Assembly: GCA_963776915.1 (NCBI GenBank)
Contig: CAVZPE010000025.1
Coordinates: forward strand, 6,701 to 70,700
From: an uncultured Acidobacteriota bacterium
GTDB lineage: Bacteria > Acidobacteriota > Thermoanaerobaculia > UBA5066
Direction of reading: 5' to 3'
Length of the DNA stretch: 64,000 nt
This document shows, in pieces, positions 10,494 through 57,223 of the stretch. The position numbers were made by a program, and so were the translations under genes. The notes beneath the pieces were generated by a model, which was not told where the DNA came from, made no database searches, and saw only the letters and a program-made list of their open reading frames with translations. Every line of letters begins with the position of its first letter. Position 1 is the first letter of the stretch.

Positions 10494-11678
10494 GTGTCGA
10501 GCCTTCCGCCTCCTTACGGATACGCGCCTCCGCCGCCTCCGCGGCGGAGGGGCGGCCCGATCCTCCTCCCCATCCTCGTGGGGCTCCTGGCGGGATGGCT
10601 CGTCTTCACGCTCCTGCAGCGGGGTCCCGGCGGCGTCGCGCCCGCGCCCGGCCGGCTGAAGGGCGCGACCGCCGAGCCCCGGCCCGTCACGGCGCGCGGA
10701 GACCTCGCGGCCGACGAGAAGGCGACGATCGAGCTCTTCGAGCGCTGCAGCCCGTCCGTCGTCTACATCACGAGCCTCGCGCGACGGCCCGTGAACTTCT
10801 TCGAGATGACGGAGGTCCCCCAGGGTACGGGCTCGGGCTTCGTCTGGGACCGGCAGGGCCACGTCGTCACGAACTTCCACGTGATCGAGAACTCCGACTC
10901 GCTCGTCGTGACGCTCGCGGACCAGTCCAACTGGAAGGCGACGGTCGTCGGCGTCGAGCCCGACAAGGACCTCGCGGTCCTCAGGATCGGGGCGCCGGAG
11001 GCGAAGCTCCCGCCGATCCTCGTCGGGGCGAGCCGCGACCTGAAGGTCGGGCAGAAGGTCTTCGCGATCGGAAACCCGTTCGGCCTCGACGAGACGCTCA
11101 CGACGGGCATCGTGAGCGCGCTCGGGCGGACGATCGAGTCCGTCACGGGCCGCAAGATCCAGGACGTCGTGCAGACGGACGCGGCGATCAACCCGGGCAA
11201 CTCGGGCGGCCCTCTTCTCGACAGCGCGGGCCGGCTCATCGGCGTGAACACGCAGATCGCGAGCCCGTCGGGCGCGAGCGCCGGGATCGGGTTCGCGGTC
11301 CCCGTCGACACCGTGAACGAGGTCGTCCCGCAGCTCATCGCGCACGGCCGCGTGATCCGCCCGCGCCTCGGGATCAGGCCGATGCAGGAGGGCCTCCTCC
11401 GCAGGCTCGGGGTCTCGGGCGTCCTGATCGGGACCGTGGACAAGGAGAGCGGCGCCGCCAGGGCCGGGCTCCGCGAGACGCGGAGGGGCGAGGACGGCTC
11501 GCTCGTCCTCGGCGACATCATCGTCGGCGTCGCGGGCAAGAAGGTCGCGAGCTACGACGACCTCGTCTCGGTCCTCGAGAAGCAGAAGATCGGCGACACC
11601 GTGCCCGTCCGCATCCTGAGGGGCGACGGCGAGACGACCGTCGACGTCACGCTCTCGGAGCCGGCGCCGCGCCGCTGA
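10494..11678 (+). CDS. HtrA/DegP-family serine protease with one PDZ domain
   Basis: TNFHV, DLAVL and GNSGGP catalytic triad motifs; N-terminal TM; PDZ. Confidence 0.93.
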   Translation: MSSLPPPYGYAPPPPPRRRGGPILLPILVGLLAGWLVFTLLQRGPGGVAPAPGRLKGATAEPRPVTARGDLAADEKATIELFERCSPSVVYITSLARRPVNFFEMTEVPQGTGSGFVWDRQGHVVTNFHVIENSDSLVVTLADQSNWKATVVGVEPDKDLAVLRIGAPEAKLPPILVGASRDLKVGQKVFAIGNPFGLDETLTTGIVSALGRTIESVTGRKIQDVVQTDAAINPGNSGGPLLDSAGRLIGVNTQIASPSGASAGIGFAVPVDTVNEVVPQLIAHGRVIRPRLGIRPMQEGLLRRLGVSGVLIGTVDKESGAARAGLRETRRGEDGSLVLGDIIVGVAGKKVASYDDLVSVLEKQKIGDTVPVRILRGDGETTVDVTLSEPAPRR

Positions 11679-12450
11679 TCCGGAACGCCTCGCGCACCTC
11701 GCCGAGCGGCGCGCCTCCCGCCCCGAAGCTCCGCTCGACGAAACGGACGTCTCCCTCCGTCACGACGACGGACGTCGACGCCCGGGTCCCGTAGTCCGGC
11801 AGGACGACGAACGCCGCCGAGAGCGCCCGCTCCCGCTCGAGCGGCAGACCCGTGTCCGGAAGCGCGACGTCGGAGGCGAGAGATCGATCTCCGAGAAGGT
11901 CGAGCAGGCGGCGCTTCGAGCTCCTGCGGCGTCCGTCGCGCCTCGCGACGGCGCGTTCCGAGCCGGCCCCGCGCGGCGATGACCTTCGGCCACGGCGTCT
12001 CGAGGAGGTGGTTCGAGAGGCCGTAGACGCCGGGAGGAAGAGAGACCGCGCTCGCCCTCGACGTTGGAGAAGGAGATCAGCTCGGTTCCATCCGAGAGAA
12101 GGAGATTGAATCCTTCGAATGAATCCGCGACGGTCCGAATGCGCGAGAGGAATTCTCGCGCGGTCTCTTCACCTCTAAGAAAATCTCTTGCGAGCGTGCC
12201 CCGAGACGGGGCGCCGCCCTTGCGCGCCGCCGTCAGCGTCGCGGAAGTTCGTCAGCGCCGCGAAGCGGCCGGTGCGCGTCACGCCGAGCCACGTGCCGCC
12301 CGCCTCGAGGTCGCGGCCGCCGAAGACCCACGGCGCGTCCGTCCACCACGCGGCGGGCGCCGCCGGCCGGGCGAGGAACTCGTCGCGGTTCGCCGCGACC
12401 GCGAGCCGGATCCCCGGCGCCGCCTTCCAGGCGAGGACGATCAGGCACAT
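11647..12450 (-). CDS. NRDE/TANGO2 family protein (frameshifted)
   Basis: MCLIV...ANRDEF...GGTWLG...LTNFR, then SRG...DFL...GFNLL...GLSNH...YGTRAST in shifted frames. Confidence 0.88.
12101..12187. repeat. Inverted pair of dispersed motif (locus 2, inside NRDE CDS)
   Basis: Weak left arm GGAGATTGAATCCTTCGAATGAAT; strong right arm CTCTTCACCTCTAAGAAAATCTC (12165-12187). Confidence 0.65.
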
Positions 12451-12468
12451 GGCGCCCTCAGCACGCCC

Positions 12469-12852
12469 TCAGCGCGCCCTCGCGGACGCCGCGAAGACCG
12501 TGACCTCGCGCCGCGCCGCGAGCGTGGCCTCGCCCTCCCGCGCCCGGCCCGTCGAGACGACGCGCAGGCGGCCGTCCGGCAGCTCGTCCGTCGCGACCGC
12601 GATCTCGCCGCCCTCGACGCGGAGCGTCGCGGACGGCAGGCCGCCGCGCGCGAGGAGCGTCCCGCGCGCCCAGTCCGTGCCCGAGCGCGCGAGCTCGGAC
12701 GCGTACTGCGCGTTCGCGCGGCGGCGCGAGGACGCGAGGTCCGTGAGGAGGACCGTCGCGAGGACTCCGAGGACGAGCCCGAAGATCGTGAGGATGCCGA
12801 GGACGAGGAGGAGCGAGCTCCCCCGCCGGCCCGAGGCCGCGCCGCGCCTCAT
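12469..12852 (-). CDS. PilX/GspK-like minor pseudopilin
   Basis: RRG|SSLLLVLGIL prepilin-like site lacking E5, followed by A..LA.SG..WA. Confidence 0.65.
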   Translation of the reverse strand: MRRGAASGRRGSSLLLVLGILTIFGLVLGVLATVLLTDLASSRRRANAQYASELARSGTDWARGTLLARGGLPSATLRVEGGEIAVATDELPDGRLRVVSTGRAREGEATLAARREVTVFAASARAR

Positions 12853-13340
12853 CGCGCGGGCTCCGTCGGGCGCCCGCACGCGAGCGCGACACGCTCCGGG
12901 CCCGACCCGTCGTCCCAGACGAGGAGGAGCCGCCCGGCCGCGAGCTCGTCGGCGTCGAGCGCGAGCGTCCCGGGCAGGTCCCACGTCGTCGTCGCGCGGA
13001 CGACGTCGCCGCCGGGCTTCTTCCGCGTGGTCGTCCGCTCCGCCGTCCCGTCCCCGAACGTCCACGCGACGTCCGGATCCTCGTCGCGCTCGGGCGGCAG
13101 CTGCAGCCGGAAGGCCGCCGCCGGGAACGGCGGCGAGACGAGCGCCCCGGAGGAGCGTCCCGCGTCGGCCTCGAGGCGGTCGACGAGGAGGGGCCACGTG
13201 TCGATCCCGAGGCTCCGCGCGTTCAGGCCCGCCTGCTGGCGGAGGAGACCGAGCGCGACCGGCAGCAGCGCGAAGAGGAGGACGACGCCGATCATGACGA
13301 CGACGCACATCTCGACGAGGGAGACGCCGCGGCGCGTCAC
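12849..13340 (-). CDS. Prepilin-type (GspJ/PilW-like) minor pseudopilin
   Basis: RRG|VSLVE plus hydrophobic helix; GTGA overlap with upstream gene. Confidence 0.7.
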   Translation of the reverse strand: MTRRGVSLVEMCVVVMIGVVLLFALLPVALGLLRQQAGLNARSLGIDTWPLLVDRLEADAGRSSGALVSPPFPAAAFRLQLPPERDEDPDVAWTFGDGTAERTTTRKKPGGDVVRATTTWDLPGTLALDADELAAGRLLLVWDDGSGPERVALACGRPTEPAR

Positions 13341-13735
13341 GGCGGCGCGACCCCCCGGAAGACGAACCCTTCCTGGACGAGGCGCTTGCGTGCGGCGGCG
13401 CCGTACCCGATCTCGAGCGTGACGCGGTAGAGGCCGTCCACGTCGGTGGACCGCACGCTGAGGACGGGGTCGCGCGCGTCGAGCCCGTCCACGAAGACGC
13501 CGGGGCCCGCGAAGGGGCGCCTGTCCTTCGGGAAGAGGTCGTGCCGGAACGCCGTCCTCAGGTACGTCCACTCGCTCGCGAGGGCGCGCGCGGCGCGGTC
13601 GCGGTCGAGCCGCTCGGCCTCGAGGGCGCGGCGGCGCGCGAGGAAGCTCGCGCCGAGCGTGAGGACGATGCCGAGAATCGCGAGCGACACGAGCGCCTCG
13701 AGGAGGAAGACTCCCCGTGTCCGTCGCCCTTTCAC
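13337..13735 (-). CDS. Prepilin-type (GspI/PilV-like) minor pseudopilin
   Basis: RRTRG|VFLLEALVSLAILG type IV prepilin cleavage motif. Confidence 0.72.
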   Translation of the reverse strand: MKGRRTRGVFLLEALVSLAILGIVLTLGASFLARRRALEAERLDRDRAARALASEWTYLRTAFRHDLFPKDRRPFAGPGVFVDGLDARDPVLSVRSTDVDGLYRVTLEIGYGAAARKRLVQEGFVFRGVAPP

Positions 13736-13821
13736 GGTTCGATTATTCCCCGGCCGCGAAGCGCCCGGGCGGTTTGACCTCTTCCGCCGCCCGTTTGCGT
13801 TTACCGGGACAGGAGGACCCC

Positions 13822-14733
13822 ATGCCACGACCGCACGCGCCCCGGGCAGCCTTCCTCGCCGCCGTCCTCCTCGCCGCCGCGCCCGCGCCGACGCTCGCGC
13901 AGCCGGCGCCGCCGGGCGCCGGCCTCCGCGTCACCGTGACGAGCGCGGGCCGGCCCGCCGCCGGCGCGGTCGTGTGCGTGGGCACGACCTCGGACCGGAA
14001 CCAGTTCTTCCAGGGCGTGGCGGACGGGCAGGGACACGCGTCGTTCTCCTCCGTACCGGAAGGGGCCTTCGTCGTGACGGCCCGTTCCGGGAACCGCGGC
14101 GCCTCCGGGAGCTTCTCGATCGCACGACCCGGCGGCGTGCCCTTCTTCTCGGCGGCGATCTCCCTTCCGCAGGCGCCGGGCGGGCCCTCCTGCCCCACGA
14201 CGCCTGCCGGACCGGACCGCCGGATCGGGGCCGGGATCGGCGCCGCGGTCGCGCGCATCACGCCGGTCCCGATCCCGACGAGCGTCGTGCTGAATCTCGG
14301 CAAGCCGTGCTTCGGAGCCCTCGGCGCGGACTGCGGCCAGCCGCAGGGCCTGATTCCGCAGTCGGCCCTCTGCTCGGGCGGCACGTGCTTCATCAACGGC
14401 GGGAGCTGGGACCACGACGAGTGCTGCTTCCGGAACCCCGGAGGCGTCGCCTGCAACCTTCCGCACCCCGACGACGGCAGCGGCACGTGCGGCGCCGCCT
14501 TCGCGAAGGCCGTCCGCCTCGCGGCGAAGGGACTCTTCTGGTCGCGTCGGATCGACTTCAACGAAAGGAACCGGACGGGCACCGTCGTCTTCGCCGAGTA
14601 CTGCGCGCCCGCGAACGCGCTCGTGCCGCCGGCGGACGGGGTCAAGTGCTGCTCGCGGGCGACGCGGGCGCTCAACGCCGCCGAAGCCGCCGCCGCGGTC
14701 GCCGCGGGCGAGAGCCTCGTGGCCTGCCGTTAA
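13822..14733 (+). CDS. Secreted protein: carboxypeptidase-regulatory-like beta-sandwich plus Cys-rich C-terminal domain
   Basis: AGGAGG RBS, signal peptide ending TLAQ, ~11 Cys in C-terminal half, WDHDECC. Confidence 0.7.
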   Translation: MPRPHAPRAAFLAAVLLAAAPAPTLAQPAPPGAGLRVTVTSAGRPAAGAVVCVGTTSDRNQFFQGVADGQGHASFSSVPEGAFVVTARSGNRGASGSFSIARPGGVPFFSAAISLPQAPGGPSCPTTPAGPDRRIGAGIGAAVARITPVPIPTSVVLNLGKPCFGALGADCGQPQGLIPQSALCSGGTCFINGGSWDHDECCFRNPGGVACNLPHPDDGSGTCGAAFAKAVRLAAKGLFWSRRIDFNERNRTGTVVFAEYCAPANALVPPADGVKCCSRATRALNAAEAAAAVAAGESLVACR

Positions 14734-17438: not shown

Positions 17439-18059
17439 GTGGCCGGCGCGAGGAGGACCGCCTTCACGCTCGTCGCGGGACTCACCGCCCTCGTCGTCGT
17501 CGTGCGCCTCGCACCGGCCGTCAAGCGCATGCTCGTCCTCGGCGACCGCGTCCGGGGCAGCCCCGTCCGGGACCTCAAGGGGCGCGGCTTCGCCCTGACG
17601 CTGCCGCCCGACCTGTGGTACGTCGCGCGACAGCGCCGCTTCGAGCTCACGGACGGAGGCGACCCGACGGACCCGGGCCGCCCGGTCCTCGAGCAGAGGC
17701 TGCTGCGCGCCGACGGGCGGGCGCACCTCGCCGTCGTGTCCTGGCGCCTGCCGGGAGGCGGCAGCCTCGACCTCGACGCGGCTGCGGCGCGCGTGTCGGA
17801 CGGATCCTCGCGGAAGCTCGCGAAGTGGAGGCTCCTCGACGTCACCCCGCTGCCCGGCCGCGGCGGCACGCGCGTCCTCCACGCCACGGCGTGGCTCGAG
17901 GATCGGGACGTCGAGCTCCTCTGGGGGCTCTATCCGAACGGCCAGGCGCTCGTCGGCGTGGTGCTCGCCGCGGACCGCGGGGCGTTCGAAAATCTGCGCA
18001 AGGAGCTGGACGGGATCCTCGCCTCGTTCCGGACGACGCAACTCGCCCCGCCCGGCTGA
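17439..18059 (+). CDS. Hypothetical membrane-anchored protein
   Basis: N-terminal TM, host-like codon usage, C-terminal LDGILASFR. Confidence 0.6.
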   Translation: MAGARRTAFTLVAGLTALVVVVRLAPAVKRMLVLGDRVRGSPVRDLKGRGFALTLPPDLWYVARQRRFELTDGGDPTDPGRPVLEQRLLRADGRAHLAVVSWRLPGGGSLDLDAAAARVSDGSSRKLAKWRLLDVTPLPGRGGTRVLHATAWLEDRDVELLWGLYPNGQALVGVVLAADRGAFENLRKELDGILASFRTTQLAPPG

Positions 18060-18097
18060 CCGATCAGCCGGGATTCCCCGTCACGCGTCTCGAGGCG

Positions 18098-22974: not shown

Positions 22975-23058
22975 GGCGGCTATTCTGAACCGACCCCGGC
23001 AACGGGGAGGAGTCCGCGCTTATTCCCGGCGCACCCGGCCCGCGGTAGCCTCACCTGC

Positions 23059-24017
23059 GTGCCCGAGCTCCCGGACGTCGTCGTCTACGCCGAGCACCTC
23101 GAGCGCCTGCTGAAGGGCGCCGTCCTGCGGAAGGTGCGCCTCGCGAGCCCGTTCGTCCTGAGGTCGGTCGCGCCGCCCCTCGCCTCGATCGAGGGCCGGG
23201 CGCTGCGAGGGGTGTCCCGGCTCGGGAAACGCCTCGTATTCTTCTTTGAAGGGGAAGAGGGGGATTCGAACCAGGAGCGCGACCGCGACGGTGACTTTTC
23301 CTCGTCCTGCACCTCATGATCGCGGGGCGCCTTCGATGGAGGGCCGGCGTCGCCCCTCTTCCCATTCCAAAGAAAATCGGTCTTCTCTCTCTTTCTCTTC
23401 GACCACGGGACTCTCCTTCTCACCGAGGCGAGCCCGAAGAAGCGCGCGTGGGTGCGCGTCGTCTCCGGCCGCGACGCGCTCGGAGCCCTCGACCCCGGCG
23501 GCCTCGAGCCGCTCGAGGCGTCGCGCGAGGCGTTCGTCGCGCGCCTGCGCAGCGAGAACCACACGCTGAAGCGCGCGCTCACGGACCCGACGCTCTTCTC
23601 GGGGATCGGGAACGCGTACTCGGACGAGATCCTGCACGCCGCGAGGCTCTCTCCCGTCGCGCTCACGTCGCGCCTGACGGACGCCGAGGTCGGCGCGCCT
23701 CTTCGACGCGACGCGAACGACCCTCCTCGAGTGGACCGACCGCCTGCGGCGCGACGCCGGAGAGACGTTTCCGGAAAAGGTCACGGCGTTCCGCGCGGAC
23801 ATGGCCGTGCACGGGAAGTTCGGCAAGCCGTGTCCCGCGGTGCGGGACCGCCGTCCAGCGCATCGTCTACGCCGCGAACGAGACGAACTACTGCCCGGCG
23901 TGCCAGACGGGCGGCAGGCTCCTCGCGGATCGTTCCCTCTCGCGCCTCCTCCACGGCGACTGGCCGAAGAGCCTCGAAGAGATGGAAGAAAGAATGAAGA
24001 ACGAGAAGATCTCCTAG
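23059..24017 (+). CDS. Fpg/Nei-family DNA glycosylase (several frameshifts)
   Basis: PELPDV N-terminus, [23 protein letters not shown] (H2TH), zinc finger CP..C / YCPACQ. Confidence 0.9.
23236..23378. repeat. Inverted pair of dispersed motif (locus 3, inside Fpg CDS)
   Basis: GTATTCTTCTTTGAAGGGGAAGAGGGG (from 23236) ... CCCCTCTTCCCATTCCAAAGAAAATC (23353-23378). Confidence 0.75.
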
Positions 24018-24093
24018 AAGGTGAAGAGGAAGAGGGGGAGGAGAGCCGCCTGCCCTCTTCCCCCTCTAGGAAAATCTTCTTCTCTCTCATTCT
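23991..24093. repeat. Inverted pair of dispersed motif (locus 4, between convergent genes; possible terminator)
   Basis: AGAATGAAGAACGAGAAGATCTCCTAGAAGGTGAAGAGG ... CCCTCTTCCCCCTCTAGGAAAATCTTCTTCTCTCTCATTCT. Confidence 0.85.
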
Positions 24094-25386
24094 TCAGCCC
24101 GCCGCGGGCCACTCGTAGTCGCGCACGGACGCCGCGCGCCACGCGATGAACGCCGCCACGAGGATCGTGCCGACGCCCCCGGAGACGACGGCGAACGTCG
24201 CACCCATCGCCGCCGAGGCGAAAAGGCTCGCGACGAAGCCCGCCTCGAGCTCGCCGAGCTGCGGCCCGCCCATGAAGAAGATCATGTTGACGCCCGTCAT
24301 GCGCCCGCGGAGGGCGTCGGGCGTCACGAGCTGTCGCACGGTCTGGCGCACGACCGTCGAGATCGTGTCCGTCAGCCCGACGAGCGCGAGCGCCGCGAGG
24401 GTGAGCGCGAAGCTCCGCGAGAGGCCGAAGACGACCGTCACCGCCCCGTACGCGGCCACGGCCCACAGGAAGACGCGGCCCTGCCGGCGCGGCAGGCCGC
24501 GCACGGACGTGAAGACCGACGCGGCGAGCGCGCCGATCCCCGGCGCCGCGCGCAGCCAGCCGTAGCCGGCCGGACCGACGAGGAGGACCCGGTCCGCGAA
24601 GATCGGGAGGAGCGACATCGAGCCCGCGAAGAACGTCGCGAAGAAGTCCAGCGTCATCGTCCAGACGAGGATGGGCGTCGAGAAGACGAACTTCAGCCCC
24701 TCGCGCAGCGACTCGAGCGGCCGGTCGGCCGCGCCCTCGGCGCGCTCCACACGCCCGGATGCGCGGAGCGTCGCGAGCGTCGCGAGGACGCCCGCGAAGG
24801 AGACCGCGTTCAGGAAGTAGACGAAGGCGAGGCCGCCCGTGTTGACGTGCGCGCCCGCCGCGGGCGCGGCGTGGGCGGCGCCCGCGAGGATCAGGCCCGT
24901 GAGCGCGGGCCCTCCGATCGCCGCGAGCTGGAACGCCGACAGGAGGATCGCGAGCGCGCCGGGCAGCTCCTCCCTGGGCACGAGGCGCGGGACGAGCGAC
25001 TGGCGGGCCGGGTTGTCGAACGCCCCCGCCGCCGACGTGCAGGCCGTGAGCAGGTAGACGACCCAGACGGGGTCGCGGCCGAGGACCGTCGCCGTGCCGA
25101 GCGCGAGGGCGACGAGCATCATCGCGGTCTGCGTCGCGAGCATGACGCGGCGGCGGTCCCGCCGGTCCGCGACGAGGCCGCCGACGAGCGACAGCGCCAC
25201 GATCGGGAGGACGCGCACGAGCCCCACGAGCCCGAGCGCGAGAGGCGAGCGCGTGAGGACCCAGACGTGCCAGTCGATCGCGACGTTCTGCATCTGCGAC
25301 CCCACGAGCGACACGAGCTGCGTGATCGCGAGGCGGCGGAAGTCGCGGTGCTTCAGCGCGTCGTACGGGCGCGGAGCGGGCGGCAC
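24094..25386 (-). CDS. MFS transporter (EntS/MFS_3-like)
   Basis: [35 protein letters not shown]. Confidence 0.9.
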
Positions 25387-54664: not shown

Positions 54665-57223
54665 ATGGCGATCCGCCTCCGCCTCACGACCACCCCCGGC
54701 TGGGAGGTCGTGCGCGCGGCACCGCGTCGGGCGGCTGCACGGGCCGCGGCCGCGGACCCGTTCCTCGCCCGGGCCCTCGCGACCCGGCGCCTCGTCCTCG
54801 CCGGAACCGCGCGCGTGCGCCCGCGCCGCGGGGCACCCGCGGAGCCCGGCCGCGCGGCGGCGACCGTCGAGGGGGCGGGGACGGACGGCTACGTCTTCGT
54901 CGCGCGCCACGCCTCGGGCGCGCTCACGTTCCACCGGACGCTGTCCGTCGCCGGAGGGGCCCACGTCTTCGAGGTCCCCCTGCCCGCGCCCGCGCGCCGC
55001 GGCGTGGCCGGTGCGGTGGTGCTCTTCCTCCTCCGGGTCGCGGGAGCGGCCGCCCGGGCGGCGCTCCCCGTCCTCGCGCGCGCGTGGGAGAAGCGCCGTT
55101 TCGCCGCGGCCCGCGCGCCGCTCGGCCTCGTGAGGCTCGCGCGCCGGGGTCCGGCTCTCGTCGCGACGCGCGTCCACGGCCCCCTGCCGCCGGCGCCCGG
55201 CAAGAGTCTCCTCTTCATCCACGGGACCTTCTCGCACGCGGCGGCGGCCTTCCTCGACCTCGCGCGGACGCCCGCCGCCTTCGACGCGCTCGCCGCGGCG
55301 TACGGCGGCCGCGTCTACGCCTTCAACCACCTCACCGTCGGCCTCGCCCCCGGCGACAACGTGAAGGAACTTCGCCCGCTGCTGTCGGGCGCGCGCGTCG
55401 ACGTCGTCACGCACTCGCGCGGCGGCCTCGTCCTGCGCGCGCTCGCGGCCGAGCGCGGCGCGCCCGCGATCGGCCGCGCCTTCCTCGCCGCCTCGCCGAG
55501 CGAGGGCACGCCCCTCGCGGCGCCCGCCCGGTGGGACGAGCTCGCCGCCTGGGTCGCGAACCTCGCCGAGGTCCTCCCCTCCGGCGCGCTCGCCTTCGGA
55601 CTCGATTTCGCCGCCGAGGCGCTCGTCTGGATCGCGCGCCGGGCCGGCGGCGCGCTCCCGGGCCTCGCCGCGATGGATCCGGCGGGCGACTTTCTCGCGA
55701 AGCTGAACGCGCGGCCGGCGGGAGGGGCGGCGTTCGCCGCGGCCGTGGCGGACTTCACGCCGACAGGCGGCCTCGCCAGACGCCTCCTCGACGCGGGCGC
55801 CGACGCGATCTTCCGAGATGCCGAACGACCTCGTCGTCCCGACCGAGGGCGGTCTCTCGCTCGGCAGACGCCGCATCGACGCGCGGACACACGGTGCGCT
55901 TCGAGGGGGACGTTCATCACCTCAATCTCTTTGCTCAGGAGAGAACGCAGGAAGGATTGAAGATTTTCTTAGAGGGTGAAGAAGGGATGCCCGCCGCCGC
56001 AGCGCGCGACACACGGCGCGGCAGCCCGCCCAAGCCCCATTCACCTTCTAAGAAATCTTCTCCCCCGGCCGCGCGCAGCGCGGCTCCTTCTTCTCTCCGC
56101 GCGCAGCGCGCAGAAATCTTCGTCTTCGGCCTCCTCCCGCTTCGACCTCCTCCTCGTCGACGGCGAGCCCGCGCGCCTCGTCGCGTCGTGGGCGGGGGCG
56201 CGCGTCGTCGAGCCCTTCGAGACGAGGGGCGGCGCGGCGGGCGAGAGGATGCGCCGGATCATCGCGCTCCACGAGCGCGTTCTCCGCGCGCTCGACGGGC
56301 GCGGTGCCGGAGACCTGCCGAAGGCCTCCGAGCTCGCGGCCTACGGCGCGGTCCTCTTCGAGACGCTCTTCCCGGGAGAGGTGCGCCGGCTCTGGGACGC
56401 GGCGCGCGGCTCCTCGGCGCGCCCCCTCGAGCTCGTCTTCACGTCCTCCCTCGACTGGATCGCCGACAAGCCTTGGGAGCTCGCGTGGGACCCCGCGCGG
56501 AAGCGATTCCTCTCGGACGACGCCGTCCTCGTGCGCAACGTCTTCGGCGCGATCCCGCCGGAGGCCCCCGCCACGAGGCGCGGGCCGCTCCGCATCCTCG
56601 TCGCGGTCGCGCAGCCGCGCGACGCGACGCCCGTCTCCGCCCGGCAGGAGACCGCCGCGCTCCGCGCGGCGTTCGCGCCGCTCGTCAGGGCCGGCCACGC
56701 CGTCCTCGACGTCCTGCCGGCCGCGACGCCCGGAGGCCTGCACCGAAAGCTCGCCGCCGAGCGCTTCGACGTCCTCCACTTCGTCGGGCACGGGGCCTGG
56801 GACGAGAAGGAGAAGACCGGCGCGCTCCTCCTCGTGGACGGCCGCGGCCGCTCCACGTGGGTCGACGCGGACCGCCTGCGGCGCCTCCTCTGCGGCCGAG
56901 GTCTCCGGCTCGTCGTCCTGAACGCCTGCGAGACGGGGCGCGGCTCGCGCAACGACTTCCTGCGCGGCGTCGCGCCCGCGCTCCTCGCCGGCGGCATCCC
57001 CGCGGTCGTCGCGAACCAGTACAAGGTCCTCGACACGTCCGCCACCGCGTTCGCCCGGCACCTCATGTGGGCGCTCGCGCGCGGCCACGCGCTCGGGCAG
57101 GCCGCGCGGGAGGCGCGCGTCGCCGTCGCGGTGGCGCGCTCCGCCGAGCCCATGGACTGGGCCGTGCCCGTCCTCTACGCGCGCGACACGTCGCTCGTCC
57201 TCTGCCGGCCGGCCCGGCGCTAG
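54665..57223 (+). CDS. Alpha/beta-hydrolase (lipase-like) domain followed by CHAT domain; one frameshifted gene or two genes
   Basis: IHGTFS, THSRGG, NDLVVPT, HH; CHAT motifs PWEL, LHFVGHG, LNACE. Confidence 0.75.
55959..56060. repeat. Inverted pair of dispersed motif (locus 9)
   Basis: GAAGATTTTCTTAGAGGGTGAAGAAGGG (55959-55986) ... TTCACCTTCTAAGAAATCTTC (56040-56060). Confidence 0.85.

Follow-up and report, generated by a model that had tools for sequence, protein, structure and literature searches.

An NRDE-family gene of an uncultured Acidobacteriota bacterium carries, in frame and without length change, an arm of a lineage-specific AT-rich inverted-repeat family

The NRDE-family gene and the arm inside it

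The window, a stretch of 64,000 nucleotides (C25:6701-70700) from the assembly of an uncultured Acidobacteriota bacterium (4.49 Mb, 34 contigs, 71% GC, completeness 81.6%), carries on its minus strand a homologue of the NRDE/TANGO2 family, and a short patch of this gene reproduces, in frame and without adding length, a single arm (arm 1, Table 1) of an AT-rich family of inverted repeats specific to the lineage. The gene is read in four pieces, which match positions 1-75, 86-139, 147-172 and 191-255 of the Pfam profile PF05742 in this order. Pieces 1, 2 and 4 score 104.4, 24.3 and 26.6 bits (curated cut-off 22.6), and piece 3, a fragment of 28 amino acids, reaches 20.4 bits, slightly below the cut-off. 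The N-terminus of the first frame (MCLIVLAWK...AANRDEF) contains both Met-Cys and the NRDE tetrapeptide, which we take to be the hallmarks of the family, and the pieces are colinear with intact orthologues of 260-272 amino acids.

The minus-strand frame from 12188 reads RDFLRGEETAREFLSRIRTVADSFEGFNLL, and the letters of the arm, (A)AGA GAT TTT CTT AGA GGT GAA GAG, encode RDFLRGEE. They contain the family core TTTCTT[A/C]GAAGG with its GTGAAGAG tail, and are identical to canonical arms elsewhere in the genome (for example on contigs C4 and C16) at 25 of 26 positions, one A being absent. With the position weight matrix (PWM) of the family the arm scores 22.6 bits and is the sole site of at least 8 bits on either strand of 11640-12460; nhmmer, with a profile built from 250 arms, gives E = 0.004. 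The codons used are exceptional for this genome. Among the 860,074 codons of its 1825 long open reading frames (ORFs), AGA accounts for a share of 0.019 of Arg, TTT for 0.043 of Phe, CTT for 0.054 of Leu and GGT for 0.049 of Gly, the corresponding shares of GAT, GAA, GGA, AAT and TCA being 0.114, 0.139, 0.106, 0.066 and 0.019, and the probability of the eight codons of the arm, given the peptide RDFLRGEE, is 10^-9.2. In the stretch after SRGTL only 16 of 35 codons end in G or C, and the deepest GC trough near the gene lies at this patch, where 80-nt windows fall to 0.50 at 12045-12197 (window mean 0.73). A reading made earlier from the letters alone (the sequence-only reading) had described a motif at 12097-12190, overprinted on conserved protein sequence in codons that the genome otherwise avoids. 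The patch is real, with the codons as quoted on the minus strand and the coordinates right within about 2 nt, and the avoidance is confirmed by codon shares of 2-14%.

Directly downstream of the arm lies a GC-rich stretch with the potential for an 8-bp hairpin. RNAfold pairs it in the minimum-energy structures obtained for the own sequence and for orthologue L008, and it is not conserved in the other five motif-bearing orthologues. In L001:1744-1887 and L004:1744-1887 a 12-bp hairpin is possible between the arm 1 tail, GAAAGGAAGAAGGGCC, and the codons that follow it, GGCCTTTCTTTC; other orthologues do not share this arrangement. No promoter-like (sigma-70-like) or terminator-like site was found in 11400-12700, and no Rfam match above threshold in 11000-13000, where ar14, at 21.7 bits against a gathering score of 58.8, was treated as chance.

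The division of the gene into pieces results from three frame breaks. A second contig, C24 (47 kb), is another version of C25:16519-58885 (window 9819-52185), syntenic over 42 kb and 91-97% identical; the presence of two versions is due either to a mixture of strains in the bin or to a large duplication. Of the 327 indels between the two contigs 266 are single-base and only 14 are of 3 nt, which is unlike the divergence of coding DNA and therefore indicates inserted or deleted bases as assembly errors. The extra base of break 2 is left out in all three soil metagenome runs that cover it (X2, X3 and X4, from three studies; X1 has no coverage of 11944-12202), and at break 3 the contigs of the same runs omit 1+1+2+1 bases and add 1. 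Across break 1, the metagenome contigs have 87 letters in place of 82 reference bases (X2, X4) or 123 in place of 118 (X3), the replaced bases ending at 12237; each is longer by 5, so that the count differs by 1 modulo 3, as an intact frame requires. Over 12156-12237 (in X3 from 12120) these contigs diverge, so that it was their lengths that were compared there, and they are uninformative on the arm itself. The three breaks are most likely inserted-base assembly errors and not pseudogenisation. The gene is probably intact in the organism, since neither C24 nor the metagenome contigs have breaks 2 and 3 and all pieces stand in Pfam order.

It is hardly credible that the gene is a pseudogene decaying in this strain and that its AT-rich patch results from relaxed constraint. 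Decay would agree with the frame breaks, of which C25 has three and C24 two, with one in common, and with the fact that no NRDE gene was found in 9 of 24 same-genus genomes. However, the patch is common to six intact orthologues, the pieces keep their ordered Pfam matches, breaks 2 and 3 are missing elsewhere, and 1-nt indels dominate the 42 kb. The sequence-only reading, which did not notice the division into four pieces, calls the gene functional; in this assembly, with its three frame breaks, it is so only putatively, the breaks being probably errors. Split or truncated NRDE genes occur also in L014/L018 (genome G006) and L015 (G024) of the same genus; G006, with 6 contigs and 53% completeness, suggests another indel-rich long-read assembly.

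Table 1. Features of the NRDE locus and further arms of the repeat family, in window coordinates
Feature	Position	Strand	Description
NRDE/TANGO2-family gene	11647..12450	minus	ATG 12448-12450, stop 11647-11649; from frame translations and Pfam PF05742
Frame pieces of the gene	~12238-12450, 12045-12236, 11957-12040, 11650-11907	minus	four pieces in the assembly
Arm 1	12165..12189	minus	in-frame repeat-family arm AAGAGATTTTCTTAGAGGTGAAGAG; encodes (R)DFLRGEE in rare codons
GC-rich stretch	12141..12161	minus	GCGCGAGA-ATTCC-TCTCGCGC (AREFLSR); possible 8-bp hairpin directly downstream of arm 1
Cluster 1			DFLRxEE; identical with arm 1
Cluster 2	12099..12126	minus	GGATTCATTCGAAGGATTCAATCTCCTT (DSFEGFNLL); local imperfect palindrome around TTCGAA
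Cluster 3 remnant	11878..11899	plus	decayed reverse arm; coding strand CCTTCTCGGAGATCGATCTCTC = LLGDRSL
Frame break 1	12237	minus	one extra base between ...NFRD and LTAARKGGAPSRG; shared by, and identical in, the C24 copy
Frame break 2	12052..12053	minus	one extra base in ...VEG|SAVSLPPGVYG; absent from C24
Frame break 3	11913..11960	minus	several small indels close together, adding a net 4 bases when compared with C24 and metagenome contigs
Further arm copies	23235, 24004/24052, 28109/28287, 29626, 35389, 40904/41050/41173, 55961-55982		PWM of at least 18 bits or BLAST match

Immediately upstream of the gene, the minus-strand ORFs of 12469-13828 have hydrophobic N-termini (e.g. ...GVFLLEALVSLAILGIVL) and are presumably of pilin or pseudopilin type, judging by their translations.

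The repeat family in the genome and in related genomes

The consensus of the family consists of a purine-rich flank followed by GGAGGATTTCTT[A/C]GAAGGTGAAGAGGGG; the core given above is usually followed by TGAAGAGGG and contains a near-palindrome (CTTCGAAG / TTCTTAGAA). In the source genome a 21-mer has 161 matches at up to 5 mismatches, and the 14-15-nt core at up to 2 mismatches has 751, against 44 in a reversed-genome control. PWM sites of at least 20 bits number 977 (control 84) and those of at least 28 bits 659 (control 3), which places the family at about 750-1000 arms in 4.5 Mb. Both strands are used (197 forward and 178 reverse matches of the 19-mer). Neighbouring arms within 400 nt form 209 convergent, 8 divergent and 49 tandem pairs with a spacing mode of 60-80 nt, and about 333 of the 751 arms are solo at the threshold used, so that an unpaired arm is not unusual. 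Both flanks were callable for 100 of 205 convergent pairs, of which 73 lie in co-directional, 18 in convergent and 9 in divergent gene settings; with a baseline of 1317 co-directional, 391 convergent and 388 divergent neighbours among 2096, arm pairs are depleted between divergent genes (9/100 vs 388/2096). About three quarters of the arms lie outside ORFs, and 177 of 751 within coding-like ORFs, where each of the six frames has 17-41 of them, both figures resting on a crude ORF criterion.

In the long ORFs, several tetrapeptides are encoded by the word far more often than expected. This applies to DFLR (GAT TTT CTT AGA) in 3 of 27 occurrences, DFLE in 5 of 20, FLEG in 9 of 31, LLRN (CTT CT(A/C) AGA AAT) in 6 of 18 and PSKK (CCT TCT AAG AAA) in 18 of 26, each with an expectation of 0.00, and to FEEI (TTC GAA GAA ATC) in 16 of 23 with an expectation of 0.41. 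Many paralogous genes on C4, C13, C15, C16 and C20 (e.g. C4:382283, C4:422017 and C20:268896), which we take to be Ser/Thr kinases, bear an in-frame arm with the peptide ...VKVLPEDFLEGEERRxRFEREA, spelled GAT TTC TTA GAA GGT GAA GAG; several of them show single-base frame slips right downstream of the arm.

Several of the further arms of the window form convergent pairs. Counting arm 1, 8 of the 11 arms of the region shared with C24 are conserved there at the homologous place. The alignment of C24 and C25 is interrupted at 23989-24108, 22994-23058 and 18031-18095; the first interruption coincides with a convergent arm pair (24004 plus, 24052 minus), and the roughly 3.4 kb of DNA that C24 has in addition at this place are bounded by C24 arms.

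The family is restricted to a narrow lineage within Thermoanaerobaculia (Acidobacteriota). The exact 13-mer occurs in 33-150 copies in each of 24 same-genus genomes and in 0-3 copies in 16 genomes of two sister families (two of these, G025 and G030, flagged as unpublished), all controls giving 0. At up to 3 mismatches the 19-mer has 107-375 matches per genome in the own genus (g1) and 6-53 in all eight genomes of the sister genus g11; in the 25 genomes that represent eight further genera of the taxonomic family it has 0-5. The g11 genome with the fewest copies (G082, 9 matches of the 19-mer; L045-L047) still contains arms that match the extended consensus, and one of them sits in an apparent coding frame reading FFEGEEG. 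In all five relatives searched, the GGTGAAGA form has 75-128 matches, against 8-16 for the AAAGGAAGA form that is used in L001 and L004; a species-specific consensus as a sign of concerted evolution was therefore uninformative, all five genomes tested preferring the same major variant.

A mobile source of the family was not found. As to a parent element with the arms for its terminal inverted repeats, every bin from 250 to 5000 nt in the source genome has about as many convergent as divergent arm pairs; with no convergent excess at these distances, which are those of insertion sequences, no parent insertion sequence is visible. The Y1_Tnp transposase domain (PF01797, RAYT) has 0 matches in the source genome and was found in 1 of 15 same-genus genomes, for which reason an association with RAYT was rejected; the domain is present in 7 of 9 genomes of two related families without the repeat. 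Among the papers listed in the open literature under Thermoanaerobaculia or Acidobacteria none describes such a repeat, subscription journals lying outside this coverage.

Orthologues with and without the word, and a second site

PF05742 was found in 15 of the 24 same-genus genomes, and the 13 intact genes were read by codon. The stretch from SRG to SN comprises 48 codons without any indel in the 13 g1 orthologues, the two own copies and five g11 orthologues, which bears out the earlier claim that little or nothing was inserted. Within this stretch the orthologues fall into two groups. In the own gene and in L001, L004, L007, L010, L013 and, weakly, L008 (the motif-bearing group), DFL and the following residues are spelled GAT TTT CTT AGA (AAG|AGG|GGT) GAA GAR. 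In L002, L003, L005, L006, L009, L011 and L012 the DFLRG is spelled GAC TTC CTG CGG GGN. TTT at Phe and CTT at Leu are each present in 6 of 7 motif-bearing sequences and in 0 of 7 others, the site scores 38-40 bits in L001 and L004, and GC3 (GC at third codon positions) of the patch is 0.54-0.74 in the motif-bearing group against 0.77-0.94 in the other, the N-terminal part of the gene having 0.85-1.00 in both. The genomes of the seven word-free orthologues hold 46-111 copies of the 13-mer; the family is thus kept genome-wide and the codon difference is therefore local to the NRDE gene. Outgroup NRDE genes (genera g10, g12 and g13, families f5 and f8) reach a PWM maximum of 3.9 bits, and those read by codon (L025, L021, L028, L031, L023 and L022) are mostly GC-rich at DFL, with the exceptions of L025 (g11) and of TTT CTA in L021. 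The codon alignment that had been proposed as a check thus gives a local GC3 drop confined to the motif-bearing group on a colinear protein; there is no inserted block, and the orthologues of family-free genomes do not use these codons. The view that the DFL and GFNLL blocks are ordinary features of the family also holds, DF(L/V) and GF(N/S/H)L recurring in orthologues from other families of the class.

In the gene tree, in which one outgroup row (L030) derives from the unpublished genome G155, the seven word-free orthologues form a clade with support 100/99, whereas the branching among the motif-bearing rows, a basal grade, is not settled. Several species have the overprint in common; it is old and not an event within the source genome.

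It is very improbable that the arm represents a mobile palindromic element, similar to Rickettsia palindromic elements or to a miniature inverted-repeat transposable element, that was inserted in frame with tolerance of the added peptide. The family does resemble interspersed palindromic repeats, with its convergent pairs and mostly intergenic arms, and in-frame intragenic insertion is documented for Rickettsia palindromic elements (PMC10969869). However, none of the 20 sequences, whether they carry the word or not, differs in length over the 48 codons, the residues that the arm encodes are matched by positions 86-139 of the Pfam profile, and neither a parent element nor a Y1 transposase was found in the source genome.

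The five g11 orthologues provide a second case. All of them carry an arm of 24-39 bits ten codons downstream of the g1 site, on the second xFLR, where GAT TTT CTT AGA AGG AAA GAG encodes DFLRRKE; at this place the own gene has GAA TTC CTC TCG CGC ATT. At the first site the g11 sequences are weakly motif-like (GAG TTT CTG AGG GGG GAA GAG, with TTT in 4 of 5 sequences). Both g1 and g11 are monophyletic in the gene tree, which does not settle their mutual position. Whatever the history, the same word sits on two different pre-adapted sites of one protein with no change of length. Moreover, the in-gene copies are shaped by stop avoidance and thus by the protein code. A canonical arm in the NRDE frame would read AGA AGG TGA, a stop, and the copies at both sites deviate from the consensus exactly at this point, with AAG GAA, AGG AAA, GGT GAA, ATG GAA, AGG AAT, AGG AAG and AGG ATG. 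In arm 1 it is the single missing base that places GGT GAA GAG in frame.

Counted per column, codons ending in A or T are concentrated in three separate clusters in the motif-bearing sequences; the word-free clade has no such cluster. The first is arm 1. The second retains its rare codons GAA, GGA and AAT in 6-7 of 7 motif-bearing sequences and has 25 genome matches at up to 4 mismatches (control 0), several of which are reverse arms of the family. As a family copy it was nevertheless rejected, with a PWM score below 8 and no nhmmer match in the own sequence in either orientation, and with E values of only 2 and 4.8 in two orthologues. The sequence-only reading had included this SFEGFN block (TCA TTC GAA GGA TTC AAT) in the motif; its rare codons are indeed conserved, but it lacks a significant match to the family. 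The third cluster (LLxLLRN, codon ~178) is a strong reverse arm, CTT CTA AGA AAT encoding LLRN, in L001, L004, L007 and L010 (PWM 18-37, nhmmer E 4e-6 to 0.11); in the own gene it has become CTT CTC GGA GAT with a reverse PWM score below 8. Arm 1 and arm 3 of these relatives, about 276 nt apart, are unsupported as a functional pair, the genome having 11 convergent and 6 divergent pairs at 250-500 nt.

These clusters bear on the suggestion that the rare-codon patch is unrelated to the family and arose as a translational-pause cluster or by chance on a DFLR..EE peptide. Cluster 2, which retains rare codons without being a family copy, is in favour of it, as is the orthologue from the g11 genome with the fewest copies (9 matches), which still has TTT and AGA at the site. 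Against these stand the identity of 25 of 26 positions with canonical arms, the 38-40 bits in L001 and L004, the codon probability of 10^-9.2 and the coincidence of the three A/T-ending clusters with two family matches that were defined from the rest of the genome. This suggestion is consequently given very little credence.

How the word may have been written and kept

Overall, the patch is best explained as an overprinted arm that was written without insertion and is kept by a force acting on the nucleic-acid word, and we regard this as probable. The word would have come about through nucleotide substitutions, or through short tracts copied from other arms, at a site that may have been pre-adapted, as GAY TTY CTN already fits most of the core. 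The conserved F-L carries the core (TTT CTT) and the variable residues behind it the remainder of the arm. A force on the DNA or RNA word would hold the arm against the strong GC3 bias. The earlier proposal of acquisition by substitution under a DNA-level force is thus supported, although these data do not separate selection from drive.

Several points weigh against this explanation. How the word was written, by point substitution or in a conversion tract, and what force maintains it are inferred, not directly observed. The gene tree is compatible with a gain in one group as well as with a loss in the word-free clade; the motif-bearing rows form a basal polytomy in it, and no more than 59% of the bootstrap trees have a branch that sets them apart from the rest. 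In view of the first site in g11, part of the word could predate both genera. Frame break 1 is common to both contigs and is countered only by the modulo-3 length of the metagenome contigs, and the in-gene count of 177 of 751 is uncertain owing to crude ORF calling in an indel-rich, high-GC assembly. No convergent partner of arm 1 was found at about 20-250 nt; cluster 2 fits in distance, but its match is not significant and there is no inverted repeat between the two, so that the pairing usual in the family cannot be demonstrated here. Folded singly, the 144-nt stretches of 14 sequences show no pairing between arm 1 and cluster 2, with z from -0.03 to -1.97 and the groups alike, and RNAalifold on the seven motif-bearing sequences gives -10.2 kcal/mol with an unfavourable covariation term and 1 of 28 pairs compensatory.

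As regards maintenance, we lean, at slightly less than even confidence, towards drive at the level of copy number, or towards a distributed signal that depends on no individual copy. The LLRN arm of the own gene has decayed, arm 1 of L008 is weak and a whole clade is empty; this turnover of copies argues that no single copy is essential, and it fits drive or a distributed signal better than a local operator. The local alternative is that the arm is a host-selected cis-element, a binding site or RNA signal under local purifying selection within a regulon-like family. A near-palindromic core typical of dimeric binding sites, a rare-codon word kept at the same codon in several species and the depletion of arm pairs between divergent genes are all consistent with it. 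Nevertheless, copies have decayed or are missing in relatives that hold the family (arm 1 of L008, the own arm 3, the seven-member clade), about 750-1000 arms per 4.5 Mb, in six frames inside genes, are far above the size of a regulon, and no promoter, terminator or Rfam match accompanies the locus. This alternative is therefore considered unlikely. At clearly less than even confidence stands the possibility that the word is a distributed DNA-level signal that these bacteria, or a selfish process in them, rewrite into any similar sequence, conserved genes included, without insertion or transposase.

Among known systems, the DNA uptake sequences of Pasteurellaceae and Neisseriaceae (USS/DUS) are similar in being short over-represented words on both strands, in being shared by related genera at differing copy number, in being spelled within genes that keep their length, for the most part where residues are poorly conserved, and in raising the frequency of the encoded peptides. 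According to Findlay and Redfield (2009; PMC2817400), uptake sequences doubled the encoded tripeptides and lie in reading frames with preferred codons. The family described here differs in being an AT-rich word in a 71% GC genome that needs rare codons, and in having arms paired head to head at 60-80 nt, about three quarters of them outside ORFs. As the bacteria are uncultured, the likeness is one of genomic footprint alone. Rickettsia palindromic elements are likewise palindromic interspersed repeats found in frame inside unrelated conserved genes and in intergenic regions; they are insertions of some 150 bp and add a peptide (PMC10969869), whereas here no residue is added and the same protein is overprinted at two different sites in two genera. 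The REP/BIME/REPIN repeats, which are mobilised by RAYT (Y1) transposases, likewise have short, inversely paired arms separated by a short spacer, number in the hundreds per genome, are mostly intergenic and are under-represented between divergent genes. Unlike REP/REPIN-RAYT systems, the source genome gave no match to Y1_Tnp (PF01797), and copies occur also within genes in six frames.

New in the present analysis are the two-group codon contrast in NRDE, the independent overprint at the second site, the avoidance of the stop and the finding that cluster 2 is not a family arm. What makes the NRDE overprint interesting is that it is clean and can be measured; a first discovery it is not. Spread by insertion is the usual view of interspersed repeats in bacteria, and the arm in NRDE is present without length change; AT-rich in-gene patches of this kind, together with inserted-base errors, may be mistaken for horizontal transfer or for pseudogenes. 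The arm is spelled in codons (AGA, TTT, CTT and GGT) that serve only 2-5% of their amino acids, and several species keep it at this site; the case can thus be aligned to measure a DNA-level force against a strong opposing GC3 bias. If the word is indeed rewritten as a distributed signal, a palindromic repeat family of Acidobacteriota would be subject to a motif drive resembling that of uptake sequences, with recognition machinery common to two genera, and compatible peptides (DFLR, FLEG, LLRN, FEEI and PSKK) would have been captured repeatedly and independently across genera and sites.

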